From the NCBI GenBank assembly GCA_023246225.1, contig JAHFIV010000036.1, forward strand, positions 1 to 11,603: a stretch of 11,603 nucleotides of DNA, in the 5' to 3' direction. The notes under the pieces are model-generated. The model searched no databases. It had not been told where the DNA came from and saw only the letters and a program-made list of their open reading frames with translations. Both the position numbers and the translations under genes were made by a program. Position 1 is the first letter of the stretch. Each line of letters starts with the position of its first letter. This document shows positions 1-11,603 of the stretch, one piece after another. This stretch comes from a bacterium (lineage in GTDB: Bacteria > Patescibacteriota > Patescibacteriia > SG8-24).

Positions 1-128
1 CCTCCGAGCCGGAATCCAAAAAAATACAAAAGCCAAACGAATCTCGTTTGGCTTTTTTTACGTTCTGGATTCCGGCTCGGAGGCCGGAATGACAAGAAGT
101 GGGTCCCGGATCAAGGCCGGAATGACAA
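1..128. repeat. Copy A of an intergenic nested-inverted-repeat element (MITE/BIME-like), truncated on the left by the window edge. The right arm TTCTGGATTCCGGCTCGGAGGCCGGAATGACAA runs 63-95, with an extra outer half-repeat GGCCGGAATGACA at 115-127.
   Basis: Near-identical to copies at 2444-2598, 6085-6258 and 7671-7816. The arms are reverse complements of each other around a central hairpin. The right flank GAATGACAAGAAGTGGGT is shared with copy D. Confidence 0.8.
17..59. terminator. Bidirectional rho-independent terminator inside repeat copy A. It lies downstream of aceA on the minus strand.
   Basis: A-tract 17-31. Hairpin GCCAAACGA-ATCT-CGTTTGGC at 32-52. T7 tract 53-59. On the minus strand the hairpin is followed by TTTTGTATTTTTTT. 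The aceA stop codon is at 142-144. Confidence 0.7.
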
Positions 129-141
129 AAAGAGCAAATCG

Positions 142-1452
142 TTACTTCGTAGGATCACCCTCGATCGGTGCCACGAACTGCGCAGCCTCGGTGGAACCCT
201 TGAGCGCGGTCGTCGACGACTGACCGCTTGAGATCACCTCTGCGACAGCGTCGAAGTATCCGGTACCGACCTCGCGCTGATGACGCGTCGCGGTGTACCC
301 CGCCGCTTCGCTTGCGAACTCGCGATCCTGGAGTGCGGCGTATGCCGACATGCCAGACTTCGCGTACTCGCGTCCGAGATCGAACATCGACAGGTTCAAC
401 GCGTGAAATCCTGCGAGGGTCACGAACTGGAACTTGTATCCCATCGCAGCGATGTCGCGCTGAAACGATGCGATCGCGGCGTCGCTCAGATGTTTCCGCC
501 AGTTGAACGACGGCGAACAGTTGTACGCGAGCAACTTGCCCGGGAACTTCGCGTGCACCGCTGCGGCGAACTGCTTCGCCTCTGCGATGTCGGGAGTCGA
601 CGTCTCGCACCAGAGCATGTCTGCGTACGGTGCGTACGCGAGCGCGCGTGCGATCGCACACTCAATTCCACCGCGAATGCGGAAGTATCCTTCGGGCGTC
701 CGCTCGCCGGTGCAAAACGGTTTGTCACCAGCATCGATGTCCGACGTGAGCAGCGTCGCGCTGTGTGCGTCGGTTCTCGCGATGATCACCGTCGGCACAT
801 CCTCCACGTCCGCAGCGAGTCGCGCGGCGATGAGCGTTCGAATGAACTGACTCTGCGGCACGAGCACCTTGCCTCCGAGATGACCGCACTTCTTCTCCGA
901 AGAGAGCTGATCCTCGAAATGCACGGCGGCCGCGCCAGCCGCGATCATCGCCTTCATCATCTCGAACGTGTTCAGCGGTCCACCGAATCCCGCCTCGGCG
1001 TCCGCGATGATCGGCGCGTACCAATGCGTGGTGTCACCCTTGTTCTCGCTGGACGCGATCTGATCCTGACGCCTGAGCGCCTGATTGATGCGACGAACGA
1101 GTATCGGAACGCTGTTCGCGGGGTAGAGGCTCTGGTCGGGGTAGGTTTCGCCGGCGAGATTCGCATCCGCCGCCACCTGCCAACCGCTGCAGTAGATCGC
1201 CCTGAGTCCCGCGCGCACCGACTGCACCGCCTGGCCGCCAGTGAGACAACCGAGTGCTGCGACGTGCTCTGTTCCCTGGAGCATCCCCCAGAGACGAAGT
1301 GCGCCGTGACCGGCGAACGTGTGCGAAATGCGGAGCGAACCCTGCAATCGCGAAACATCATCCTCTGAGTACGGCCGCACGATCCCGTGCCAACGCGAAC
1401 CAGACCATCGCTGCACCGCACCACCACCGCCTACCACCCAATCGATACCCAT
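142..1452 (-). CDS. aceA: Isocitrate lyase (glyoxylate shunt).
   Basis: Contains the ICL signature [13 protein letters not shown]. Aligns along its length with mycobacterial and E. coli isocitrate lyase from memory ([51 protein letters not shown]). The start is placed at MGIDW (ATG at 1450-1452) because AAGGAGG sits 5 nt upstream. The track's ORF begins 51 nt earlier with no SD. Confidence 0.93.
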
Positions 1453-1626
1453 CGCATCCTCCTTCTGACGCGTCCTTCCGGAAGCGCTCAAAAACGCTAG
1501 CATGAACGCGGCCTAAGTTCAATAGTTGACTTTTTAGGGGAAATCTGTCAGGATCTGAACGGTTCATTTTCCGCCGTTTCGACGGTACAACCCCACAAAC
1601 ACCGGCAAAACCGGAGAAGGCACGTC

Positions 1627-2373
1627 ATGTTCACCTTGTTCATGTTCGGTTCCGCAGCGTTCTGGATCCTCCTCGTGATCCACGGGATCATCCTGGTCGC
1701 GTTCGTCGAGAACGAGAGGCCCGGCTGGGCGACAGCCTCGTTCATCGCCCTCGTCGCCACGCTCGGCTTCCTCGGCGACTTCAACATCGTCAAAGCCGCG
1801 TTCGGCCACCTCGGCCTCACCGCAGGCTTCCTCGCGGCCTACTTCGTCCTCGGCACGGCGTACTCAGCGTACAAGTGGCGGAAGTACGTCACGATCCTGG
1901 GCAAGGAGTACGACGAGCTGAAGGCGAACTTCCTCCAGGCCTACGGCATCCAAGGCACCGATATCCCTGACATACACCTGCTCGAGTGGCAGCGAACCAG
2001 TCAGGGCTACGGAAGAAGGGAGAGGTTCCCGCGCGAGTTCAACGGAGTCCCCCAGGTCGAGCACAATAAGCGGCGCGTCCTCGCATGGATGTGCTACTGG
2101 CCCTGGCTATTCGTGTGGACGGTGATCGATGACCCGGTGCGGCGCGCGTTCAAGGTGATCTTCGAGCGCATCAAGTCTTGGTTGCAGAGCTTCGCGAACA
2201 AGCAGTTCGCCGGAGTCGCGAGCGACTTCCGCTCACCACCTCCGCCGCCGCAGGCTCCCGCAGGGACTGTCGCTGATCCGTTCGCTACCAACACAACCGG
2301 TGCTGGTGCGAACGTCGCCGCGCTCGACTACGACGACGAGAAGACCCCTCTCTCCCCCGTTTCTCCCGCCTAG
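1627..2373 (+). CDS. Hypothetical polytopic membrane protein with a Pro-rich C-terminal tail (PPPPPQAPAG).
   Basis: GGAGAAGG lies 8 nt upstream of the ATG. Three N-terminal hydrophobic helices and a fourth around VLAWMCYWPWLFVWTVI. High-GC third-position usage. No recognised family. Confidence 0.7.
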   Translation: MFTLFMFGSAAFWILLVIHGIILVAFVENERPGWATASFIALVATLGFLGDFNIVKAAFGHLGLTAGFLAAYFVLGTAYSAYKWRKYVTILGKEYDELKANFLQAYGIQGTDIPDIHLLEWQRTSQGYGRRERFPREFNGVPQVEHNKRRVLAWMCYWPWLFVWTVIDDPVRRAFKVIFERIKSWLQSFANKQFAGVASDFRSPPPPPQAPAGTVADPFATNTTGAGANVAALDYDDEKTPLSPVSPA

Positions 2374-2392
2374 TCGCGACACATCACAATAC

Positions 2393-2423
2393 GAGACTCG
2401 TCATGACGACGAGTCTCTTTTTT
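2393..2423 (+). terminator. Rho-independent terminator of the 1627-2373 gene.
   Basis: Perfect 10-bp stem GAGACTCGTC/GACGAGTCTC at 2393-2402 and 2408-2417, with a 5-nt loop, followed by TTTTTT. Confidence 0.8.
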
Positions 2424-2443
2424 AATATATTGTTTCCCTCTTT

Positions 2444-2598
2444 TGTCATTCCGGGCCGTCTTTCTTTGTCATTCCGGCCTCCGAGCCGGAATCCAGAAAA
2501 ATAAAAAGAACAAACAAAATTCGTTTGGTCTTCTTTTTTACGATTCTGGATTCCGGCTCGGAGGCCGGAATGACAAAAAAATATGGGCTGGAATGACA
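2444..2598. repeat. Copy B of the nested-inverted-repeat element.
   Basis: Left half-repeats TGTCATTCCGGGCC and TTGTCATTCCGGCCTCCGAGCCGGAATCCAGAAA. Central A-rich run then CAAAC..GTTTGG then T-rich run. Right arm TTCTGGATTCCGGCTCGGAGGCCGGAATGACAA plus outer GGCTGGAATGACA. Confidence 0.85.
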
Positions 2599-2611
2599 AT
2601 GAAAAAGTGAG

Positions 2612-2647
2612 CAATAAAAAATCCCCTGAAGCGTGATGCTTCAGGGG
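2612..2647 (-). terminator. Rho-independent terminator of the flotillin gene.
   Basis: Perfect 10-bp stem CCCCTGAAGC/GCTTCAGGGG with loop GTGAT. On the minus strand it is followed by ATTTTTTATT. Confidence 0.8.
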
Positions 2648-2673
2648 GCGAGACAAACTCTCTTCTTCTGTTA

Positions 2674-4494
2674 CTAGCCGCCGTTCGCGACGCCGACCTT
2701 GGCCGGTGCCGCCTGCGGTGCGGGGGTGGAAACGGGTGCGCTCCCGCTGTCCTCGGCGGATCCGCTGAGACGTGTAGCCGCGGCGTTCAGCACCTTGCCG
2801 AGCGTCGCACCGGCACCTTGGACGATCTCCTTGGTGTCGTTGCTGGCGGCGGCGAAGAAGCCGTCGACCTTGGTCGCGAGCGTCATGCCGTCCATGAAGC
2901 TCCTGCTCATCCTGCCGACGTCCTCGGGGCTGCCGAAGACCTGCGCCGAGATGGAGCTGGAGAACTGGGCCATGGCCTTGGCACCTTCGATGCGGATCTC
3001 CGCCTCCTTGGTGATACGCAGCTTGGCGAGCTCGAAGTCCTGCATCGCCGAACCGTGCTCTGCGCGAGCCTCGAGCTCCTTCAGAAGCACGTTGACCTTG
3101 CGCTGCTCGACGTCGACTTGCGCGCTGGCCACGTCGACCGGCACCATCGCCTCGGCCTTCTGACCTCTGGCACGTGCCTCGGCCGCGGTGGACTCGGCGT
3201 TCGCCTTCTTGGTGATCGCCTCCGCCTCTGCGTCCGCGGCAGCCTTCTGGCCTTCGGCTTTCTTCTGGAGTCCGTAAGCCACGGCGTCCGCGGCCTTCTG
3301 GGCCTGGACGTACGCTGTCTGCGCGGTCGCTTCGGCGCCGATGACCTGCGTGGTCTTGGCGCGCTCGGCTTCGGCGGTGACCTTCACGGTCGTGATCGCC
3401 TGCCGCTCGGTCTCGCGCGCGGCTTCCGCCGTGGCGAGCTCGGCTTCCTTCGCCGTGCGTCCCGCTTCGGCCTGCGCGATCGCCGCCTGCTTGGTGCGTT
3501 CGGCGACCTCGATCGCTTGCTGCTGGGTGCGCTTGGCGACCTCGATCGCTTGCTGCTTGTCGATGTCGGCGAGATCGATCGCTTTCGTGGTGGCGATCTT
3601 CTCCTGCTCCGTCGCCTGGGTCTGCTGCGCCTGGGCGACAGCGATCAGCGACTGCTGTGTGGCTTCGGCTTCAGCCTGTTCACGCAGCAGATCCAGCACC
3701 GCCTTCTTGGTGGTGACGTCCTGCGAGGTCCGCGCCTGCTCTCCCTCACGCTCGAGCTGGTTGCGCTCGGTCTTCTTGGCCTGCACGATGCGAGCCACGA
3801 CTGCCGCACCCTGCGCATCGAAGATGTTGTGATCGCTATTTAGGGCCACGAGATCGGTCTGATCGAGCTTGGAGATGGTGACACCTTCGAGTGTGAAGCC
3901 GTTCTGCTGCAACTCGAACTTCACGATCTTCGTGACCTCCGCCACAAACTGATCACGCTCTCGATTGAGAGCTTCGAGATTCATGGTAGTTGCAACGGAA
4001 CGAAGGGCTGACACGAGCTTGGTTTCGATGAACTCGTTGAAAAGCTTCCAGTCCCCCATGTACTCGCTGCATGAACGTGCCGCTTGCTGGATGCTGTCGA
4101 GATCGGGTTGCACCCGAATGTAAAACTCCGTGGTCACATCGGCACGAAGCATGTCCTTGGTGAGGAGCGCGTTCTTGCCATCTTTTGCGACCACAAGCTT
4201 CCTGCTGCCGAGTGGGACTCGAACGAGCGTATGCATGAACGAGATGACCAGCACACCACCATCCTTGATCACCTTCATTCCACCCGTACCCGTGCGGACG
4301 AGAGCCTCGTTGGCCTTCGTCTTGTGGTAAAGGTGAGTGACTGTGGCAAGAATGCCGGCGAGGATCGTGAGTGCAACTCCGCACACGAGCAACACTGTGG
4401 TTGCGAGGATGCCGAGCGAATGCCCGAGCGCGCTTGCGGTGACCGGTCCTGCGATGAGCAGGAGTCCGAAGACGAGGAGTAGTACGATTCCCAT
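2674..4494 (-). CDS. SPFH/band-7 flotillin-like protein (YqiK-like) with an N-terminal membrane anchor and a long Ala/Glu/Gln-rich coiled coil.
   Basis: EALVRTGTGGMKVIKDGGVLV matches the E. coli YqiK QAFVRTGLGGQKVVMSGGAIV region. An SPFH core is followed by about 250 aa of EAEA/QQA heptad-hendecad repeats. The start is chosen at MGIVLLL (ATG 4492-4494, weak GGAAAGAGAG upstream). The alternative ATG at 4548 has no SD. Confidence 0.85.
   Translation of the reverse strand: MGIVLLLVFGLLLIAGPVTASALGHSLGILATTVLLVCGVALTILAGILATVTHLYHKTKANEALVRTGTGGMKVIKDGGVLVISFMHTLVRVPLGSRKLVVAKDGKNALLTKDMLRADVTTEFYIRVQPDLDSIQQAARSCSEYMGDWKLFNEFIETKLVSALRSVATTMNLEALNRERDQFVAEVTKIVKFELQQNGFTLEGVTISKLDQTDLVALNSDHNIFDAQGAAVVARIVQAKKTERNQLEREGEQARTSQDVTTKKAVLDLLREQAEAEATQQSLIAVAQAQQTQATEQEKIATTKAIDLADIDKQQAIEVAKRTQQQAIEVAERTKQAAIAQAEAGRTAKEAELATAEAARETERQAITTVKVTAEAERAKTTQVIGAEATAQTAYVQAQKAADAVAYGLQKKAEGQKAAADAEAEAITKKANAESTAAEARARGQKAEAMVPVDVASAQVDVEQRKVNVLLKELEARAEHGSAMQDFELAKLRITKEAEIRIEGAKAMAQFSSSISAQVFGSPEDVGRMSRSFMDGMTLATKVDGFFAAASNDTKEIVQGAGATLGKVLNAAATRLSGSAEDSGSAPVSTPAPQAAPAKVGVANGG
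3502..3590. repeat. In-frame 33-nt tandem repeat, two good copies and a diverged third, inside the flotillin coiled-coil region.
   Basis: GGCGACCTCGATCGCTTGCTGCT occurs at 3502-3524 and 3535-3557. A third unit GGCGAGATCGATCGCTTTCG follows at 3568-3590. This encodes 11-aa repeats QQAIEVAKRT, QQQAIEVAERT and KQAAIAQAEAG. Confidence 0.7.
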
Positions 4495-4553
4495 GGTGGT
4501 CTCTCTTTCCGTTTCGTTGGGTTGGGGGTTGGTGTTTTCGTGTCTCATGAAGT

Positions 4554-5270
4554 TCAGTGCGTCGTCGTCAGGTCGTCGGCGGGGTTCGCCTCGACCGTGA
4601 AGCAGTCCTGTTCCTGATCGTAGTCGATGATCAGAATCTCTATTCCCTTCGGAAGCTCACCGTTCTCGGTGCGCACCGCGATGTCGTAGACACCGCCTTT
4701 CGAATCCAAAACTCTCGCGAGCCCGAACTTCTGATCAGCGGGGAGAAGCAGAGTGCCGGTCGTACCGACGAAGTCCTGCTTGCGGACGTTGTGCGTCTCG
4801 GTCATCGGCATCACGCGGTTCAGCCCGCGAGCGATCTTCCCCGTGAGGAAAAACGACACGAGAGAAGCGACTGCGAACGATACCGGTGCGTAGACGTACA
4901 CTGAGACGAGCGACTGGAGCGCCGCGTTCACGATCAGACCTGTGCAGCCGAACACCATCGACATGATCATCAGAATGATCGTGACCGGGACGCGCCCGAT
5001 ACCGATGTAGCTGAACAGCCTGGAGAAGAACGAACGCTCGTTTCCCTCTCCGGCGGGTGCGACCGCGAGCGGGTTGTGGCCGCGCTCGTTGTCGGTGTCG
5101 TGATCGTGCTCGGTGTCGTGACCGACGTCGTGATCTCCCTCGATGTCGTGATCGACATCGAGGTCGGCATCGTGGCCGATGAAGCCCAGCACTGCGCCGA
5201 GGACCAGCAAGATGCCGAATCCGAGCGAGATGATGAAAATCAGATTCTGTGGCTCGAGAAAAAACTCCAT
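4554..5270 (-). CDS. NfeD/YqiJ-like membrane protein, the usual operon partner of SPFH proteins, with a His/Asp-rich loop.
   Basis: Sits immediately upstream of the flotillin gene and is co-oriented with it. It has N-terminal TM helices, a C-terminal soluble beta-rich domain (VYDIAVRTENGELPKGIEILIIDYD), and a loop GHDADLDVDHDIEGDHDVGHDTEHDHDTD. The start is chosen at MEFFLEP (ATG 5268-5270) because AGAGGAG sits 6 nt upstream. The upstream ATG at 5297 has no SD. Confidence 0.75.
   Translation of the reverse strand: MEFFLEPQNLIFIISLGFGILLVLGAVLGFIGHDADLDVDHDIEGDHDVGHDTEHDHDTDNERGHNPLAVAPAGEGNERSFFSRLFSYIGIGRVPVTIILMIMSMVFGCTGLIVNAALQSLVSVYVYAPVSFAVASLVSFFLTGKIARGLNRVMPMTETHNVRKQDFVGTTGTLLLPADQKFGLARVLDSKGGVYDIAVRTENGELPKGIEILIIDYDQEQDCFTVEANPADDLTTTH
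5090..5180. repeat. Degenerate GTCGTGATC-like short repeat tract encoding the His-Asp-rich loop.
   Basis: Minus-strand coding of HD dipeptide runs. The plus strand shows reiterated gtcgtgatc / gtcgtgacc / gtcggcatcgtg units. Confidence 0.45.
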
Positions 5271-5403
5271 GAGTGACTCCTCTTGCACGTCGCTCATGAG
5301 CGAACGTGTCTTGTGTTGGGGTTGTGGTTGTCAACGTGCCATGCGTTGAGTGCTTTCTGTGGCCCCTCACGCATCAGTCTCTTACCAAGAGAGTGCGATT
5401 TTG

Positions 5404-6042
5404 TCAAGATTTAGTGTCTTTTGCCTTAAAAATTTCGAAAATCGGGGGGAGGAGAGAGATCACGATAATCGCGAGAATGATGAGCGTAAAATTGTGCCGC
5501 ACGGCGGGAAGATTGCCGAAAAAGTACCCGCCGAGCGTAAACAGTGCGATCCAAAGCGCACCACCAACGACATTGTATATAAGGAAGGTGCGATAACGCA
5601 TTCGCCCGACTCCCGCCACGAACGGAGCAAATGTGCGGACGATCGGCATGAACCGCGCAATCACGATCGTCTTTGCGCCATACTTTTCATAAAAATGCTG
5701 CGTACGTTCGAGGTGCGCAGGACGGATTTTTATCCCAAAAAATGTGCCACGCGCGATGATCGATGCGCCGATACGCCGCCCGATCCAATAATTCACGGTG
5801 TCACCGAGAACAGCGGCGAGTATACAAAGGAAGAGAAGCGCAGAAAGATGCAGCGCGCCGTTTGCTGCGAAAGCCCCCGCAGCAAAAAGCAGCGAGTCAC
5901 CGGGGAGAAACGGTGTGACAACGAGTCCAGTCTCACAGAACAGCACAACAAAAAGTACGCCGTACGTTCCTGCGCCATACTGCGCGATTACGTTCGCGAG
6001 ATGGGTGTCGAGATGGAGAAAGAGGTCGATGAGTACGTGCAT
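5404..6042 (-). CDS. DedA-family (VTT/SNARE-associated domain) inner-membrane protein.
   Basis: FCETGLVVTPFLPGDSLLFAAGAFAA is the DedA hallmark. The length and topology resemble E. coli YqjA/YghB. Confidence 0.85.
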   Translation of the reverse strand: MHVLIDLFLHLDTHLANVIAQYGAGTYGVLFVVLFCETGLVVTPFLPGDSLLFAAGAFAANGALHLSALLFLCILAAVLGDTVNYWIGRRIGASIIARGTFFGIKIRPAHLERTQHFYEKYGAKTIVIARFMPIVRTFAPFVAGVGRMRYRTFLIYNVVGGALWIALFTLGGYFFGNLPAVRHNFTLIILAIIVISLLPPIFEIFKAKDTKS

Positions 6043-6062
6043 ATATGTCTAGAGACCCCGTT

Positions 6063-6090
6063 AGTATACATGTCCCTTCTCCATTGTCAT
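6063..6090 (-). promoter_or_regulatory. Putative sigma70-type promoter for the DedA gene, with the -35 supplied by the repeat terminus.
   Basis: On the minus strand: ATGACA (the complement of 6085-6090, which is the TGTCAT end of repeat copy C), a 16-nt spacer, then TATACT (complement of 6063-6068). This places the start site about 14 nt upstream of the ATG at 6042. Confidence 0.35.
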
Positions 6091-6258
6091 TCCGGCCAAC
6101 CTTTGTTGTCATCCCGGACCTCCCTCTCTTGTCATTCCGGCCTCCGAGCCGGAATCCAGAAACGTAAAAAAGGATCAAATAAAATCTGCTTGGTTACTTT
6201 GTTGCGTGGATTCCGGCTCGGAGGCCGGAATGACAAAGAAAGATGGTCCAGAATGACA
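6085..6258. repeat. Copy C of the nested-inverted-repeat element, with a degenerate central hairpin.
   Basis: Three left half-repeats (TGTCATTCCGGCC, TGTCATCCCGGACC, TGTCATTCCGGCCTCCGAGCCGGAATCCAGAAA) and two right ones (GGCCGGAATGACAA, CCAGAATGACA). The centre is CAAATAAAATCTGCTTGG with no clean T-tract. Confidence 0.85.
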
Positions 6259-6266
6259 ATCGCGAT

Positions 6267-6297
6267 AAGAAAAAACGTCCCGCAATAATGCGAGACG
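6267..6297 (-). terminator. Rho-independent terminator of the 6305-6790 gene.
   Basis: Hairpin CGTCCCGCA-ATAA-TGCGAGACG, a 9-bp stem with one mismatch. On the minus strand it is followed by TTTTTTCTT. The stop codon is at 6305-6307. Confidence 0.55.
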
Positions 6298-6304
6298 CCG
6301 CGTG

Positions 6305-6790
6305 TTACCAGGGGATCAGACGCCTGAGCAGCTCCGACCAGTTCTGCATGATGTCTGCGTGTCGGAGAAGTTCCTGGTGAGCCGCCACTTCGATCGGATC
6401 CGGAGCGAACAGGTACAAGTACGGAACGTGGTTGATCGCGTACTGCATGATGTGCGGTCGGTCGTCGACGAAGTGCGTCACGTCCTCTGCGATGCACACC
6501 GAGGCCTTCTCCTCTGGGTTACGAACGAACCGCAGAGCCTCTGGCGAAATCCCGGTCTGCTCGTGGAATCCCTTTTCCTTGAGCCATGCCCGCTTCACGC
6601 GCTCGATCTCCGGCGTGCACTGCGAGAGTAGGATTACTCGACCGTCGAAGCATTCGCGGTAGAGTCGCCCCGCACCATCGAACGAGCCCGGGGTCGGCAG
6701 CGCTGCCGCATACCCCTCGGGAGTCGATCCTCCCTGTGCCTTCAACACCGGTCCACCCAAATCGAGCGCCAACTTTTCTTTTCTGGCCAT
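6305..6790 (-). CDS. Hypothetical small soluble protein. It has a weak NT5C/HAD-like N-terminal resemblance, but motif I is degenerate (LALDLGGPV instead of hhDxDGV).
   Basis: AAAGGAG lies 7 nt upstream of the ATG at 6788-6790. The track ORF extends 27 codons further upstream without an SD. The family assignment is tentative. Confidence 0.6.
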   Translation of the reverse strand: MARKEKLALDLGGPVLKAQGGSTPEGYAAALPTPGSFDGAGRLYRECFDGRVILLSQCTPEIERVKRAWLKEKGFHEQTGISPEALRFVRNPEEKASVCIAEDVTHFVDDRPHIMQYAINHVPYLYLFAPDPIEVAAHQELLRHADIMQNWSELLRRLIPW

Positions 6791-6864
6791 GCCCAGCTCC
6801 TTTCGTGAGCCCCTGCACTTCGCAGGAAAAACAGTACACCACACATTTTTGAAATAAGCAAGGG

Positions 6865-6893
6865 TTGACAACGCAAGCGCGCATCACTACGCT
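6865..6893 (+). promoter_or_regulatory. Putative promoter for the 6913 gene.
   Basis: TTGACA at 6865-6870, a 17-nt spacer, then TACGCT at 6888-6893. GGAGG at 6903-6907 precedes the ATG at 6913. Confidence 0.3.
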
Positions 6894-6912
6894 GAGAGTC
6901 TCGGAGGAAACC

Positions 6913-7656
6913 ATGAACCTCGAACAGTTCCTTGATACAAGCCGACGCGAACATACAGAACTCAGCTTGCGTAGCGCGCTCGGTGCGCGACGCATCGATG
7001 CCGCGGAGGCGCTCGAAAAAAACAAACAACTCCTCGAGCGCTACACTGCGGTGATCACCGCATTCGATGGATTAGAGCGGTGCTCGAGCGCAGGGTACAT
7101 GATGCGCGAGCATGTGCGGTGGATGTTTGTTGCGCGGTACACCGCCTCACAGGTGCTGAGCACAGTGAAGCCGACAGCACTCGAATGTGTGATCGTTCCC
7201 GAAGCGATCGTTACGCAGAATCGCCATCTGCCATGCCACGACGCGCTCGCTACTTCTGGTGCATGCGCGATGCGCACCGTCTCTTTCACCAGTCAGCAGA
7301 TCGCCGAGGAAGCTGTAGCGGTATACGCCAGCGCAAACGTTCGCATCGGTGAATACGAAGACGCGTTGATCGAAATGTGTCGCGCCTGCGGAGAAAAATC
7401 GGTTGTGGTTTGCAAGCACTCGATCAAAGTCGAGGAGGACGATCACGAGATCACGCTGTATCGTCTGTGCATGCACTGCCCGAATCTCCAAGAGATCGCG
7501 CGCATGACCAGCCTCGGTCCCACGCACGGTGATCTCGACACGCTCTTTCCGCGGACGACGGAAGTGATAACAGAGGGGGCGGTCGCTCCCACGACTTCCG
7601 CATCCCCCATCCAGACGAATCCAGACGAGGCTACCGCACCCGAACCGGTGCGGTAA
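6913..7656 (+). CDS. Hypothetical Cys-rich protein with a putative zinc ribbon (CRAC-x8-CKH ... CMHC) and a Pro/Thr-rich C-terminus.
   Basis: GGAGG lies 5 nt upstream of the ATG at 6913. The track ORF starts at a TTG at 6865 that coincides with the -35 hexamer. No recognised family. Confidence 0.6.
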   Translation: MNLEQFLDTSRREHTELSLRSALGARRIDAAEALEKNKQLLERYTAVITAFDGLERCSSAGYMMREHVRWMFVARYTASQVLSTVKPTALECVIVPEAIVTQNRHLPCHDALATSGACAMRTVSFTSQQIAEEAVAVYASANVRIGEYEDALIEMCRACGEKSVVVCKHSIKVEEDDHEITLYRLCMHCPNLQEIARMTSLGPTHGDLDTLFPRTTEVITEGAVAPTTSASPIQTNPDEATAPEPVR

Positions 7657-7670
7657 CGACCCTCTTCTTT

Positions 7671-7816
7671 GTAATTCCGGCCACCACCTTGTCATTCCGG
7701 GCTCGACCCGGAATCCAGAAAAAATAAAACAACCAAACGTAATCACGTTTGGTCTTTTTTTACGATTCTGGATTCCGGGTCGAGCCCGGAATGACAAGAA
7801 GTGGGTTGGAATGCGT
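7671..7816. repeat. Copy D of the nested-inverted-repeat element. It is a variant with compensatory changes and an intact central bidirectional terminator.
   Basis: Left GTAATTCCGGCC then TTGTCATTCCGGGCTCGACCCGGAATCCAGAAAA. Centre is an A-tract, then CCAAACG-TAATCA-CGTTTGG, then TCTTTTTTT. The right arm TTCTGGATTCCGGGTCGAGCCCGGAATGACAAGAAGTGGGT is the exact reverse complement of the left arm. Confidence 0.85.
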
Positions 7817-7877
7817 TGCGTGTGGTTCATGAAATTTCCTCCACCACAAGCAAACACGATCCGCAATTTAATATTTT

Positions 7878-8309
7878 TTAAATATTCTTCACCTCAAGAA
7901 TGTGCGGCTTGATGAATACCTTGATCGACGCAACTTCTTCATCTTTCTTTTTTGCATCACTCGCCGCGACATTTTTTGCAAACTGGTAGAGAACGAGTGG
8001 TGGAATATGAAGCCACTTCTGATTCTTGTGCAAAAAATACAGTAGCGTCATCACTGCGATGCGTTTGTTGCCGTTCTCAAAGGGATGATTCTTAATCATC
8101 AAATAAAAAAGTGCCGCAGCTTTGTCGAGCAGCGTCGGATACAATTCGCGTTTGTCGTATGTTTGTTGCGGAACAGAAAGACAACTCTCGAGACGATTGG
8201 GATACCGAGAAGCGAACGGAGGGATCGGTTCACCCCCCTCCATCATCTGACGCGCGAGCTCATGCGCAACGCATTCGACTTCTCCAAGCGTGAGATATTC
8301 CATACTCAT
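7878..8309 (-). CDS. doc: Doc-family (Fic-fold) toxin, death-on-curing-like kinase.
   Basis: HPFENGNKRIAV matches the Doc variant of the Fic motif HxFx(D/N)GNKR. The protein is about 140 aa. Its start codon overlaps the upstream gene's stop by 4 bp (ATGA). The region is AT-rich. Confidence 0.8.
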   Translation of the reverse strand: MSMEYLTLGEVECVAHELARQMMEGGEPIPPFASRYPNRLESCLSVPQQTYDKRELYPTLLDKAAALFYLMIKNHPFENGNKRIAVMTLLYFLHKNQKWLHIPPLVLYQFAKNVAASDAKKKDEEVASIKVFIKPHILEVKNI

Positions 8310-8566
8310 TCTTTGGCGAGCGCACGAAACGTTTCACCGTACTCATCCAACGCTTGTTTCACCACTTTTTGAATTTCGAATTTTTTCTCCGCAGAAAGAT
8401 CGGTGCCCAAAAGCAGCGGCATATCTTCTGCCAAAACAATGAATGATCGGCCGATTTTTGCAGCCTTCAGCTTCCCTGACTTCACCCAACGAAAAACAGT
8501 AATTCGGCTCACCCCGAGCAATTCCGCGGCTTCTTTAAGAGAGAAATGCGACTTTGTTGCACTCAT
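8306..8566 (-). CDS. HTH DNA-binding protein (excisionase/MerR-like HTH_17). Presumed antitoxin and autorepressor of the Doc module.
   Basis: LKEAAELLGVSRITVFRWVKSGKLKAAKIG is a classic excisionase-family HTH. It is translationally coupled to doc. The start is taken at ATG 8564-8566 (MSATKS). The track's first codon is a TTG at 8582-8584 inside the operator palindrome. No clear SD for either start. Confidence 0.65.
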   Translation of the reverse strand: MSATKSHFSLKEAAELLGVSRITVFRWVKSGKLKAAKIGRSFIVLAEDMPLLLGTDLSAEKKFEIQKVVKQALDEYGETFRALAKE

Positions 8567-8572
8567 ATAGAG

Positions 8573-8615
8573 ATAGTGTAACAATTGTTACATGATATGT
8601 CAAATAGTGTAACAA
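8573..8615. promoter_or_regulatory. Putative operator for the HTH-Doc operon. It has a 16-bp perfect palindrome and a direct 12-mer repeat.
   Basis: TGTAACAATTGTTACA at 8577-8592. ATAGTGTAACAA occurs at 8573-8584 and again at 8604-8615, 31 bp apart. The palindrome lies between the putative -35 (TTGACA, complement of 8598-8603) and the -10 (TACACT, complement of 8575-8580). Confidence 0.5.
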
Positions 8616-8670
8616 AATAAACTCTCTCTAAACTAGGTGGATATTTCGTCCTTAGTGTCAGGAACTTTAT

Positions 8671-8698
8671 AATATAAAAACACCCGCTCAAGAGCGGA
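8671..8698 (-). terminator. Terminator downstream of the tRNA-His gene (tRNA operon).
   Basis: Hairpin CCGCTC-AA-GAGCGG, or CCGCT-CAAG-AGCGG, at 8683-8697. On the minus strand it is followed by a T-rich tract (complement of AATATAAAAA at 8671-8680). Confidence 0.5.
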
Positions 8699-8706
8699 TG
8701 TTTTTA

Positions 8707-8782
8707 TGGGGTGGCCAGAGGGAATCGAACCCTCATCAGCGGGACCACAACCCGCTGTGCTAACCGTTGCACCATGGCCACC
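8707..8782 (-). tRNA. tRNA-His (anticodon GUG) with G-1 and an encoded CCA.
   Basis: Reverse complement is GGTGGCCATGGTGCAACGGTTAGCACAGCGGGTTGTGGTCCCGCTGATGAGGGTTCGATTCCCTCTGGCCACCCCA. The cloverleaf folds with anticodon loop UUGUGGU. The extra 5' G pairs with discriminator C, as is typical of bacterial tRNA-His. Confidence 0.92.
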
Positions 8783-8843
8783 ATGTCATTCTTAGGAGTC
8801 GCCGACGCACAATAACGTATCTTCTTCACCCTTTCAAGAGGGG

Positions 8844-8918
8844 TGGTGCCCCCGGTAGGAGTCGAACCCACATCACGCGGGTAGAAACCGCGTGCTCTAT
8901 CCATTGAGCTACAGGGGC
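8844..8918 (-). tRNA. tRNA-Arg (anticodon UCU) with an encoded CCA.
   Basis: Reverse complement is GCCCCTGTAGCTCAATGGATAGAGCACGCGGTTTCTACCCGCGTGATGTGGGTTCGACTCCTACCGGGGGCACCA. Acceptor GCCCCUG/CGGGGGC, T-loop TTCGACT, anticodon loop UUUCUAC. Confidence 0.9.
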
Positions 8919-8932
8919 GTAACTCTCTGCGG

Positions 8933-8961
8933 AAGATACCTCTCTAAAGGCCCGACGTCAA
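8933..8961 (-). promoter_or_regulatory. Putative promoter of the tRNA-Arg/tRNA-His operon.
   Basis: On the minus strand: TTGACG (complement of 8956-8961), a 17-nt spacer, then TATCTT (complement of 8933-8938), about 8 nt upstream of the mature tRNA-Arg 5' end. The -35 overlaps the palindrome GTCAATC-GAGG-GATTGAC at 8957-8974. Confidence 0.35.
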
Positions 8962-8969
8962 TCGAGGGA

Positions 8970-8998
8970 TTGACAAATCGACCTTATTATGGTAGCAT
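8970..8998 (+). promoter_or_regulatory. Putative divergent promoter for the small ORF at 9039.
   Basis: TTGACA at 8970-8975, a 17-nt spacer, then TAGCAT at 8993-8998. It shares the palindrome with the tRNA promoter. Confidence 0.3.
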
Positions 8999-9038
8999 CT
9001 TTGGTTCCATTGCGTTGGGACTTACAGAGGAGAAAAAC

Positions 9039-9245
9039 ATGCGTTCTCGGATTCGCTATGGCTGGGATAGCACAGTTGCGGAGTTCCCCGACACGCGCGA
9101 GCTGATGAATCGCGCGTCAGCGGCGCTCAGTCTCCCCGTCGACGACGATGATGAGAAGGAGCGACTGGTCGGAGTGGCAGAAGACTCGTTCAGCAAGCGC
9201 GAGTTCAAGAAGTGCGAGGAGGCGCTCATCAGGCTCGGTCTCTAG
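9039..9245 (+). CDS. Small acidic hypothetical protein (68 aa, DDDDEKE tract).
   Basis: GAGGAG lies 6 nt upstream of the ATG. A strong terminator follows. The track ORF's N-terminal extension overlaps tRNA-Arg and is rejected. Confidence 0.5.
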   Translation: MRSRIRYGWDSTVAEFPDTRELMNRASAALSLPVDDDDEKERLVGVAEDSFSKREFKKCEEALIRLGL

Positions 9246-9263
9246 GCGACATACCTGCTCGAA

Positions 9264-9295
9264 GGCCGGCGGTTCTCAGGACCGCCGGCTTTTTC
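9264..9295 (+). terminator. Rho-independent terminator between the convergent small ORF and the xer gene.
   Basis: 9-bp stem GCCGGCGGT/ACCGCCGGC, loop TCTCAGG, then TTTTT. Confidence 0.75.
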
Positions 9296-9299
9296 AATG

Positions 9300-10241
9300 T
9301 CATTTTTTCTTTTTTCCTTTTGCGTGAAAGGCGTTGTATACCTCGCGCAGTCGTTCATCGGTGATGTGCGTGTAAATTTGTGTGGTCGTGATCGACGAAT
9401 GACCGAGCAGTGTTTGCACACTGCGAATGTCAGCGCCGTTTCTGAGTAAGTCAGTGGCGAATGTATGACGCACCGTGTGCGGCGTGATCCGTTTTGTGAT
9501 TCCCGCTGCGCGCGCATAGTGTTCGACGATGCGTTGCACACTGCGCGGAGTGAGACCGCCATCATAGTCGCGACCTTTTCGCGCGCGATCATGACTCGTA
9601 AATAAAAATGGCGACATGTCTTTTCTTTTCGCGAGATATTTTTCAATCCAATATCGCGCTTGATTCGAAAGAAACACCACGCGCGGTTTGTCGCCTTTTC
9701 CACGCACCGTAAATTCTTCGCGTTTCAAATTGATCGTTTCTTTTTTGAGTCCTGCGAGTTCGGAAACGCGCAGCCCTGTCGAAAATAACATTTCAAGAAT
9801 TGTTTTGTCGCGCAAACGAACAACGTCCGCGTTCGCTTCACCACCTCGACTATTTTTAAACGGCGCTTCGAGCAAGCGCTCAAGCTCCTCCGCATCGAGA
9901 AACGCAACCGAACGCTCGGGCATTCGCGCGAGTTCAATTTTTTCTGGTGCGAGGGTTTTGACGTCACGCTTCGAAAGATATTTGAGAAAAGATCGGAGTG
10001 CGATCAGATGATAATTCTGTGTATTTTTTTTCATCCCCTTTCCGTGTTGATCTTTGTAACGATTCAACCACACGCGATACTGGCGCACGAGATCGAGCGT
10101 GATTTTTTCTGGTGTGATATTTTTCGACCAAAGAAAAAATCGTCGCAAATAAAAATCGTAATTTTTTACGGTTCGTTCGGAACGGTTCCGTTCCACCTCG
10201 AGATACACGAGGAAGTCACTAATCAAATTTGTTGCGGGCAT
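9300..10241 (-). CDS. xerC: XerC/XerD-family site-specific tyrosine recombinase.
   Basis: It aligns along its whole length with E. coli XerC/XerD from memory, sharing the motif blocks TVKNYDFYLRRF, DKTILEMLFSTGLRVSELAGL, VRGKGDKPRVVFL, HTVRHTFATDLLRNGADIRSVQTLLGHSSITTTQIYTHI, and a Lys-rich tail like XerC. The XerC versus XerD assignment is uncertain. The GC content is lower than in flanking genes. Confidence 0.85.
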   Translation of the reverse strand: MPATNLISDFLVYLEVERNRSERTVKNYDFYLRRFFLWSKNITPEKITLDLVRQYRVWLNRYKDQHGKGMKKNTQNYHLIALRSFLKYLSKRDVKTLAPEKIELARMPERSVAFLDAEELERLLEAPFKNSRGGEANADVVRLRDKTILEMLFSTGLRVSELAGLKKETINLKREEFTVRGKGDKPRVVFLSNQARYWIEKYLAKRKDMSPFLFTSHDRARKGRDYDGGLTPRSVQRIVEHYARAAGITKRITPHTVRHTFATDLLRNGADIRSVQTLLGHSSITTTQIYTHITDERLREVYNAFHAKGKKKK

Positions 10242-10252
10242 AGAGTCTCTAC

Positions 10253-10258
10253 ATTATA
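10253..10258 (-). promoter_or_regulatory. Perfect TATAAT -10 box for the xer gene, implying a near-leaderless transcript.
   Basis: The complement of ATTATA at 10253-10258 gives TATAAT, with only 11 nt between the -10 and the ATG at 10241. There is no SD, and no good -35. Confidence 0.4.
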
Positions 10259-10284
10259 CGTCACATCTTCTGGCTGAGATAGAG

Positions 10285-10326
10285 CACAAAAAGAAAACAC
10301 CCCGCGTGGAAGACCATGCGAGGTGT
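10285..10326 (-). terminator. Terminator of the 10359-10856 gene, just upstream of the xer promoter.
   Basis: Hairpin ACACCCCGCGTGG-AAGA-CCATGCGAGGTGT (13-bp stem, 2 mismatches). On the minus strand it is followed by TTTTCTTTTTGTG. Confidence 0.6.
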
Positions 10327-10358
10327 ATTGAAGATGAGATGGTGTTCAGGTCTGCTTG

Positions 10359-10856
10359 TCACGTCGCTCGCGAGCGACGTGACTTGCGCCGTGCGACCAC
10401 GAACCGCTCCCCGGGATTGAAGGGGTAGTCGGGGCCCCCGTAGCGCGTGCGGAGCCAGAGACCATCCTCGTCGTGCGCGATGCAGAAGAGGTTCGGATAC
10501 CCGTCGACAACAGTGATCCCCTCCATCGCGATGATGAGCTGCTCGCCTTTGGGCTGGTCCTTGTAGGACTCCCGGAGCACGATGGCAGTCTCGGCAGGAC
10601 AAAGGTCGAAACCCTGCTCGACGATCCGCGTGCAGATAATGTCGAACCGCGTCTCTTTCTTGAAATCGAGCTCGCCGACCGAGACCTCGATGGGCTCGAT
10701 GTCGGTCGGGGTCTGGCTGAGTGGGGTTTTCTTGAGGACTTTCTCGGCCGAGGGCTTGACCTTCATACTATTCACCTCAAGAGACTCACGACAATTCTCG
10801 AGGGTCTTGTGGACGCCGAGTTTGACGGTCGCGAGCGTTCTTCCGATTGTGGGCAT
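10359..10856 (-). CDS. Hypothetical protein (165 aa) with a basic C-terminal tail RRKSRRSR.
   Basis: AAAGGA lies 10 nt upstream of the ATG at 10854-10856. The track ORF starts at an upstream GTG. No recognised family. High GC. Confidence 0.55.
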   Translation of the reverse strand: MPTIGRTLATVKLGVHKTLENCRESLEVNSMKVKPSAEKVLKKTPLSQTPTDIEPIEVSVGELDFKKETRFDIICTRIVEQGFDLCPAETAIVLRESYKDQPKGEQLIIAMEGITVVDGYPNLFCIAHDEDGLWLRTRYGGPDYPFNPGERFVVARRKSRRSRAT

Positions 10857-10906
10857 CGTCACTGTATCCTTTCGTTGCTCTGTGAGGATCACTTAGGCAA
10901 CAGCTA

Positions 10907-10966
10907 TGTATAGCAAATAAGAAGACGTTCGTCAATATTGACTCCGCGCCTTTTTTTGTGTGCAAT
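10907..10966. promoter_or_regulatory. Divergent promoter region with face-to-face -35 boxes inside the 12-bp perfect palindrome GTCAATATTGAC (10931-10942).
   Basis: Plus strand: TTGACT at 10938-10943, a 17-nt spacer, then TGCAAT at 10961-10966. Minus strand: TTGACG (complement of 10930-10935), a 17-nt spacer, then TATACA (complement of 10907-10912). Confidence 0.35.
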
Positions 10967-11013
10967 AGCCGCGAAGCAACGAGCTTCGCTACCCCTTACC
11001 AAGGAGGCGCACC

Positions 11014-11603
11014 ATGCGCATCAACCCCGCAGTGCTGGTCATCGCTTTGCTCGCGATGTTCATTCCGGTTTCGTGCTGTTGCGACAACGACGCTCCCCCT
11101 TCAGGGCGCGCGCGATACGATGGACCACCGACACTCACGATCGGTTCGTCTGACGCGCAGGTCACGTTCGACCTCAGCGATCGGTTCGCAATGCACATCG
11201 CATCTTCGGACGGTCGTCTGTTGCTCGATTCCTCCAACGACGATCCGTCGCCGAACGACTTGAGTAAAGCGTACGGCGAGATCGGCGCAACGCACCGCGA
11301 CACCGAGTTGAAACCTTCGATCATCGAAGGGTTCGATCACGCGGTGCCGACCGATCAGCCGTGGCTGCACGCGAAAACCGTCGCAGCGGTGACGCACACG
11401 GAGACGAGTGCAACGATTCAGCTGTTCGATCCGTCGACGCCCGACGTCACGATCACGCTCGCTGTCGAAGTGCGCGGCGCAGAAGTTGCGGTCGAGGCGA
11501 CCGTGGACGATCCGCGAAAAAACGCCGCAGCGAAGTCGCTGAACATCGTCGGTCAATCGTTCGATCTCGATGCCGACGAGCAGTTCGTCGGACTCGGCGA
11601 ACG
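11014..11603 (+). CDS. Secreted lipoprotein-like protein, the N-terminal part of a putative GH31 glycoside hydrolase (alpha-glucosidase/alpha-xylosidase family). It runs off the window end.
   Basis: AAGGAGG lies 6 nt upstream of the ATG. Frame 1 is open to the window edge and so is not in the ORF track. The signal peptide MRINPAVLVIALLAMFIPVSC is followed by Cys residues. The C-terminal visible motif EQFVGLGER matches the conserved GH31 N-domain motif (YicI ETVYGLGERF). Confidence 0.55.
   Translation, partial: MRINPAVLVIALLAMFIPVSCCCDNDAPPSGRARYDGPPTLTIGSSDAQVTFDLSDRFAMHIASSDGRLLLDSSNDDPSPNDLSKAYGEIGATHRDTELKPSIIEGFDHAVPTDQPWLHAKTVAAVTHTETSATIQLFDPSTPDVTITLAVEVRGAEVAVEATVDDPRKNAAAKSLNIVGQSFDLDADEQFVGLGE

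Follow-up and report, generated by a model that had tools for sequence, protein, structure and literature searches.

We find that an 11,603-nucleotide (nt) stretch of a Patescibacteriota genome of the SG8-24 lineage (contig JAHFIV010000036.1 of assembly GCA_023246225.1, positions 1 to 11,603; here called the window) most likely carries a working type II toxin-antitoxin (TA) operon of the Doc class, in which a small helix-turn-helix (HTH) protein of the HTH_17 family is the antitoxin. The downstream gene of the pair encodes a protein of 143 amino acids (aa) that is a Doc-type toxin by profiles, motif, and fold. It scored 52 bits against the Pfam Fic model PF02661 (cut-off, 24) and 47.9 bits against TIGR01550 (DOC_P1; cut-off, 38.65), and the Doc signature HPFENGNKR that a first-pass annotation of this DNA had reported is present at residues 75 to 83. 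In an alignment of 57 sequences (56 homologues plus P1 Doc), H75, F77, N81, K82, and R83 are invariant. The lysine of the NKR triplet is established as setting Doc kinases apart from AMPylating Fic proteins, which have GNG(R/K), with a second glycine at that place (Castro-Roa 2013, cited in PMC10440598). An AlphaFold2 (AF2) model computed on the family alignment shows the all-helical Doc fold, with a predicted local distance difference test (pLDDT) value of 92.5 and a predicted template modeling score (pTM) of 0.88. When this model was compared with the PDB using Foldseek, the top five matches were chains of P1 Doc (3k33, 3dd7, and 3kh2; probability of 1.00, template modeling [TM] scores of 0.69/0.78), and Fic AMPylators ranked below them with TM scores of 0.4 to 0.5. 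The profile check that had been proposed for this protein and the fold comparison both confirm the Fic/Doc assignment. The Doc subfamily to which it belongs comprises at least 1,199 clusters and has an N-terminal segment that is longer than that of P1 Doc and conserved (EPIPxFxSRxPNxLESC).

The upstream open reading frame (ORF), which contains LGVSRITVFRWVKSGKL, encodes a protein of 86 aa. Its initial description as an HTH_17/excisionase-like DNA binder agrees with two curated profiles, both of which it matched above their cut-offs: HTH_17 (PF12728; 41.5 bits, cut-off of 27) and excise, the excisionase-type HTH (TIGR01764; 42 bits, cut-off of 28.8). In the AF2 model, a winged HTH (wHTH) domain is built from a strand (residues 7 to 9), two helices (10 to 17 and 21 to 30), and two further strands (35 to 38 and 41 to 45) at a pLDDT of 80 to 88, followed by a low-confidence linker (48 to 58) and a single long helix (59 to 85) at a pLDDT of 78 to 87. 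The solved structure nearest to the wHTH domain is Gp37 (4j2n). The part of the protein past the HTH, first put at roughly 45 aa, comes to about 38 aa (residues 49 to 86). As modeled, this layout of a wHTH domain, a flexible linker, and a C-terminal helix is that of a classical modular type II antitoxin. No match of the antitoxin to Phd/YefM (PF02604) was obtained at an E value of ≤0.1, and hhalign found nothing when the antitoxin family profile was aligned to P1 Phd (probability of 0.2%). We take 8306 to 8566 as the antitoxin gene because gene callers returned the same 86-aa product on four independent assemblies and because the six-codon extension of a longer, 92-aa candidate starting at TTG 8584 (MLHYLYM...) is out of frame in locus L006, the closest divergent relative. 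The seeming conservation of this extension in L010, L022, and P0023 is that of operator and -10 DNA and not of coding sequence. The 86-aa sequence is on record from Logan and ENA assemblies and not from NCBI, where the Doc and integrase of the contig are found; the deposited NCBI annotation probably uses another antitoxin start or omits the gene.

Both the antitoxin and its pairing with Doc are widely conserved. A word-indexed search with the window antitoxin retrieved seven relatives with a near-invariant C-terminal motif (EYGETF-x-x-L). Among the best 150 cluster representatives of an exhaustive profile search were about 100 full-length proteins of 83 to 93 aa with the same architecture, whose tail consensus reads K-x-x-I-x-x-A-V-x-K-A-V-x-E-Y-G-E-T-x-x-L-L-G-x-E. 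A profile of 59 diverse members recovered 2,898 clusters (90% identity, E value of ≤1e-10). The named hosts are mostly Patescibacteria/candidate phyla radiation (CPR) lineages (Portnoy-, Wolfe-, and Sungbacteria, Paceibacterota, and Parcubacteria), plus Omnitrophota, and the source names are "excisionase family DNA binding protein," "helix-turn-helix domain-containing protein," or "hypothetical protein," never antitoxin. The top scorers of the antitoxin profile (P0008 to P0035 and others) are proteins of 160 to 860 aa with 3 to 9 tandem HTH_17 repeats; these multi-HTH_17 proteins are unrelated to the Doc pairing. In all 11 complete genome loci that were found by antitoxin peptide patterns alone (in Moran-, Peregrini-, and Shapirobacteria, Paceibacterota, Phycisphaerales, and others), the start of a Doc gene is no more than a few nt away from the antitoxin stop, and the product of this gene is 47 to 80% identical to that of the window. 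Further look-ups that began from the antitoxin (in Omnitrophota, Wolfebacteria, and Sungbacteria) found Doc as the next gene three times out of three, bringing the total to 14 of 14. Starting instead from Doc on long contigs, including one from an actinomycetotal (Actinomycetota) metagenome-assembled genome, an HTH_17 gene of 84 to 96 aa was directly upstream in 3/3 cases. The flanking genes vary between loci (HNH, phosphoribosyltransferase, RadC, ABC transporter, TrmB, and GGDEF), as expected of a mobile two-gene module.

Upstream of the antitoxin gene, a consensus scan predicts a sigma-70-like promoter that matches 10 of 12 consensus positions. The first-pass annotation had placed a perfect 16-bp palindrome between the -35 and -10 elements. 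The palindrome (TGTAACAATTGTTACA) is perfect, but it is not strictly between them: given the positions of the two hexamers (Table 1), it occupies the spacer and extends 4 nt into the -10. The reported second copy of ATAGTGTAACAA is also there, so that this 12-mer occurs twice, at 8573 to 8584 and at 8604 to 8615, 31 bp start to start, and a third, inverted half-site (8585 to 8596) completes the palindrome. Allowing up to two mismatches, ATAGTGTAACAA has 3 matches in the window versus 0.27 expected, a number reached in 1 of 200 shuffles. The -35 is bracketed by half-sites 1 and 2, which form an inverted repeat. Between the window and its three nearest divergent relatives (L006, L010, and L022), alignment is confined to a stretch running from about -60 up to the start codon, and the DNA further upstream is unrelated; the -35 TTGACA, the spacing, the layout of the three half-sites, and the ATG are invariant in the window and these three loci. 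Half-sites 1 and 2 covary, reading TTACA/TGTAA in the window and TTGCA/TGCAA in L006, L010, and L022, and half-site 3 stays TGTTACA.

Of 15 loci, 10 have the AACA-NN-TGTT core of the palindrome no more than 70 nt before the antitoxin start codon, most often between -21 and -24, and the core is missing from the other 91,750 nt of the same 15 loci. In 6 of the 10 core-bearing loci, TTGAC is found 14 nt upstream of the core. A looser class of half-sites is 17-fold enriched, with a motif that was defined after inspection and with some of the loci related. Three loci were fetched after the motif was fixed; two have the core upstream of the antitoxin, and in the third (L034) the core, with TTGACA after it, stands before an additional ORF of 97 aa that is itself upstream of the pair. 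Overall, the core stands before 13 of 18 related operons and is otherwise absent from those loci (about 100 kb). Its recurrence at promoters is good comparative evidence that the HTH_17 protein recognizes the site, where it would occlude the promoter, and the idea of autorepression put forward from the window alone is strengthened by the comparison. In L034 (1195 to 2174; Sungbacteria related), the 97-aa ORF, which has no Pfam match, lies between the operator-promoter and the pair, which would make a three-gene operon possible. The same locus has another Fic-domain gene 450 nt downstream.

The predicted -10 overlaps the right half-site, its end is just 7 to 8 nt (8 nt in the window) from the antitoxin ATG, and a Shine-Dalgarno sequence is lacking; a leaderless transcript is therefore probable. 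Eight loci (among L006, L010, L011, L012 to L014, L022, and the window) have the palindrome between -21 and -24. Comparison of the loci suggests that leaderless transcripts could be a trait of the whole HTH_17-Doc family.

The C-terminal tail of the antitoxin weakly but specifically resembles what would be the end by which certain AbrB-type Doc partners bind the toxin. Residues 59 to 85 of the window antitoxin align to the last 27 positions of TIGR02609 (doc_partner) with an E value of 0.024. When 59 isolated tails were compared with NCBIfam, 17 matched the C-terminal end of the same model (its last 26 positions; best E value, 5e-4), and every other NCBIfam family was matched by one tail each. 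We also scored Doc partners encoded on plasmids, both AbrB-type proteins (Staphylococcus, Enterococcus, and Limosilactobacillus) and unannotated small proteins (Treponema and Acidithiobacillus), with a hidden Markov model (HMM) of the tail, judging the scores against 2,000 shuffles per protein. One AbrB-type Doc partner, from a plasmid of Enterococcus mundtii, had a C-terminal match to the tail HMM with a score of 14.5 bits (0 of 2,000 shuffles). By eye, a number of Doc partners have similar C termini (...[YF]xxx[FY]KxL[AV]xx). A search of all PDB sequences with the tail-only profile found no antitoxin. A relationship between the tail and the C terminus of Phd is plausible.

In the mechanism that we propose, the antitoxin would bind the TGTTACA half-sites, probably as a dimer. 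These half-sites would form two overlapping dyads that span the promoter from the -35 through the spacer to the -10, and binding would thereby shut off the antitoxin's own promoter; any conditional cooperativity is likewise a prediction. The C-terminal helix would lie on Doc and block its active-site groove, as the C-terminal segments do in Phd and in Doc partners of the AbrB type. By analogy, Doc would be a kinase that halts translation, probably by phosphorylating elongation factor Tu (EF-Tu). The transcript would probably be leaderless or nearly so, and Doc would probably be translated by coupling to termination of antitoxin translation at the ATGA junction. If the antitoxin were lost, Doc would arrest translation. 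A bolder version would make the HTH_17-tail/Doc pair the dominant Doc module of Patescibacteria/CPR, with a cross-phylum AACA-NN-TGTT operator, a leaderless transcript, and a substrate or role other than phosphorylation of EF-Tu Thr382 (for example, phage defense or control of an epibiotic lifestyle); this we regard as speculative and rather unlikely.

The ATGA overlap that had been described between the two genes is present, but the two genes could meet in either of two ways (overlapping by 4 nt or separated by 2 nt), because most Doc homologues start where the second ATG (8303) lies, as MEYL.... Both versions are compatible with translational coupling, and in related loci the two genes likewise meet within a few nt. 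The module lies on the 3' side of tRNA-His and is AT rich in GC-rich surroundings, as first described, with a GC content of 0.43 to 0.47 across 7800 to 8600 versus 0.55 to 0.68 in most of the window. The repeat copy D said to bound it is also real (7660 to 7812) and has three relatives in the window, at 1 to 132, 2437 to 2600, and 6075 to 6260. These are copies of a dispersed palindromic intergenic element of about 150 nt, in which the arms GTCATTCCGG...CCGGAATGAC flank a terminator-like hairpin. The element gave full-length matches on both strands to Rfam RF02625 (WsnRNA46, Wolbachia small RNA 46) that are below the gathering score of 65.3, the best being 7671 to 7814 (58.1 bits; E value of about 1e-10). 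It looks like a repetitive extragenic palindrome or miniature inverted-repeat transposable element (REP/MITE type) that doubles as a bidirectional terminator.

Table 1. Features of the window that are discussed in the text
Feature	Positions	Strand	Details
Doc toxin gene	7878-8309	minus	143 aa + stop; alternative start ATG 8303 gives 141 aa
Catalytic motif HPFENGNKR, Doc residues 75-83	8061-8087	minus	Fits Doc-type pattern HxFx(D/N)(A/G)NKR
Antitoxin gene	8306-8566	minus	86 aa + stop; start ATG 8566
wHTH DNA-binding domain, antitoxin residues 7-45	8432-8548	minus	AF2 model
C-terminal helix, antitoxin residues 59-85	8312-8392	minus	Proposed to neutralize Doc; ends in family motif EYGETFRALAKE
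ATGA junction	8306-8309	minus	Antitoxin stop overlaps Doc start codon; read from sequence
Sigma-70-like promoter (predicted)	8575-8603	minus	TTGACA 8603-8598; 17-nt spacer; TG-TACACT 8580-8575 (extended TG)
Operator region (putative), three TGTTACA half-sites	8573-8615	minus	Forward 8604-8615; inverted 8585-8596; forward 8573-8584
Perfect 16-bp palindrome	8577-8592		TGTAACAATTGTTACA; core AACA-NN-TGTT
Bidirectional terminator hairpin	7731-7754		Downstream of doc; center of repeat copy D
tRNA-His	8707-8781	minus	Upstream of module, same strand
tRNA-Arg	8844-8918	minus	Upstream of module, same strand
XerC/D-like tyrosine recombinase gene	9300-10241	minus	Phage_integrase and SAM-like N-terminal domains
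Isocitrate lyase gene	142-1503	minus	High-GC flank
624-aa SPFH/Band 7 protein gene	2674-4548	minus	Internal 33-nt tandem repeat region 3477-3584
YqiJ-like membrane protein gene	4554-5297	minus	High-GC flank

A gene for a XerC/D-like tyrosine recombinase is located just upstream of tRNA-Arg and tRNA-His, about 730 bp from the module, with low GC over 9400 to 10400. The recombinase and the TA module are alike low in GC, within a stretch of about 2.6 kb (7800 to 10400). Direct repeats that might flank the module as attachment (att) sites gave no convincing candidate, the only match being one of 13/14 nt between 7684 to 7697 and 8778 to 8791, which falls in dispersed-repeat sequence and the 5' end of tRNA-His. 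The hint that the module could be a recently acquired island next to tRNA-His comes from base composition (its low GC content) only. Both junctions of the module with the flanking DNA are supported by independent assemblies. Most relatives of the module are in CPR genomes, from which the flanks differ in gene content and GC, as would fit horizontal acquisition.

These surroundings allow for a different account of the pair, in which the HTH_17 protein is an excisionase for the recombinase and Doc is cargo or an orphan toxin carried by an integrative element that sits at the tRNA genes. The best curated domain match is indeed named "excisionase family DNA-binding protein" (TIGR01764), the PHROG matches are excisionases, and a Phage_integrase-family gene lies on the same strand about 730 bp away in a low-GC region adjoining tRNA genes. 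However, the integrase is set apart from the pair by two tRNA genes, the search for att-like repeats on either side of the module was negative, and the conserved C-terminal helix, which resembles the tails of Doc partners, is without counterpart in excisionases. We consider this account very improbable because related loci have the same pair without a nearby integrase, which is near only in the window, and because the HTH_17 gene is always in an operon with Doc. Nor do we favor the view that the module is a decayed, nonfunctional remnant. Its intergenic surroundings are rich in repeats and the 86-aa product is apparently unrecorded at NCBI (a weak point), but neither ORF is disrupted, no catalytic or family-invariant residue is missing, and the promoter, operator, and terminator are intact. 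With independent assemblies of at least four samples yielding identical copies, decay seems extremely improbable.

Several observations do weigh against reading the locus as a Doc-class TA operon with an HTH_17 antitoxin. The 143-aa protein is just 20 to 22% identical to P1 Doc. As a whole protein, the antitoxin scores 15 to 16 bits against TIGR02609, with a cut-off of 55.9, so that only the tail resembles this family. One of the six plasmid Doc partners is statistically supported and the tail HMM had no match for the others, similarity being undetectable for four of the six, for which reason we claim a resemblance for AbrB-type partners only; no similarity of the tail to P1 Phd was found by hhalign, and the tail HMM gave no score for it. 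The promoter and the leaderless start are predictions from consensus only, and, with the half-site motif defined post hoc and several loci related, the enrichment figures overstate independence. The low identity to P1 Doc, together with the many nontoxic roles of Fic-domain proteins, would also fit a pair made up of a transcription factor and a nonlethal regulatory Fic enzyme (acting by AMPylation or phosphorylation) that forms no toxin module. This, too, is improbable, because the catalytic motif is of the Doc type and the genes are intact in independent reassemblies. The NKR lysine is the mark of a Doc kinase and not of a GNG(R/K) AMPylator, and the best fold matches are to Doc and not to AMPylators. 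Small size, an antitoxin-first operon, patchy spread, varied neighborhoods, and low GC are, moreover, typical of mobile TA modules.

We therefore return to the HTH_17 protein as a Doc antitoxin and to the question of its novelty. The first-pass annotation had raised the prospect that HTH-Doc pairs are a common, described subclass. They are common, with 2,898 antitoxin clusters, but no description of an HTH_17/excisionase-type Doc antitoxin was found in the literature searched, which excluded TADB, TASmania, and most subscription journals. Among curated family models and source annotations, none recognizes an HTH_17 Doc antitoxin. PADLOC reported no known system, the only hits being Doc-domain matches to candidate single-gene systems (PDC-S23 and larger RhuM-like proteins) and HTH matches. 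The module is thus an ordinary member of a large, apparently unnamed antitoxin family, and Doc antitoxins are probably what thousands of small proteins are that carry the labels "excisionase family" or "helix-turn-helix" in genomes of CPR and other uncultivated bacteria. Recognizing them would correct their annotation and add a fifth DNA-binding scaffold to the known partners of Doc. The family also offers a clean natural example of the modular antitoxin model, with its portable neutralizing tail joined to an interchangeable DNA-binding domain, and a compact operator-promoter unit, conserved across phyla, that is directly testable. It does not change the current view of how TA systems work, and its value lies mainly in annotation and as a tidy test case.

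Compared with P1 Phd-Doc (3K33, 3DD7, and 3KH2), the module has the same toxin fold and HxFx(D/N)(A/G)NKR motif and the same arrangement of abutting genes with the antitoxin first; the P1 phd stop and doc start overlap too. Both antitoxins combine a DNA-binding domain with a C-terminal helical segment, which in P1 binds the toxin and here would do so, and both operators, the one here being putative, are palindromic. In contrast to P1, the DNA-binding domain here is a winged HTH_17 and not a Phd/YefM fold (there is no match to Phd by profile or hhalign), no similarity between the tail and Phd was found, and the toxin, at 20 to 22% identity, has the longer conserved N-terminal segment. The AbrB/SpoVT-type Doc partners (TIGR02609) are the sole curated family that recurrently matches the tail, and they share the gene order with Doc; their N terminus is an AbrB-type swapped hairpin, whereas here it is HTH_17. 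The pairing was at first called noncanonical, which holds in that the partner is not Phd; the term is a relative one, considering that Doc has been published with AbrB, Xre-HTH, YhfG, and PanA partners (PMC2701414 and PMC10440598). In the survey by Makarova et al. (2009), the families adjacent to Fic/Doc are AbrB (55), Xre (22), and YhfG (11), and PHD is named as a Doc partner elsewhere in the paper (PMC2701414). Truncated MerR-like HTH antitoxins appear there only with PIN/VapC toxins (PMC2701414). Those pairs have an antitoxin of the same broad MerR/excisionase-like HTH class, but their toxin is PIN in place of Doc, and it was the N-terminal part that was proposed to bind the toxin (PMC2701414). 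In PanA-Doc of Corynebacterium doosanense (Ernits et al., 2023), the "Phd-C" helices alone, fused to SUMO, neutralize Doc (PMC10440598). PanA is therefore similar in carrying a Doc-neutralizing C-terminal helical element, in its case proven sufficient, on an unrelated N-terminal domain (PMC10440598), and it differs in that this domain is Panacea and not a DNA-binding wHTH. The HTH_17-Doc pair is fully anticipated by the published mix-and-match model of modular antitoxins.

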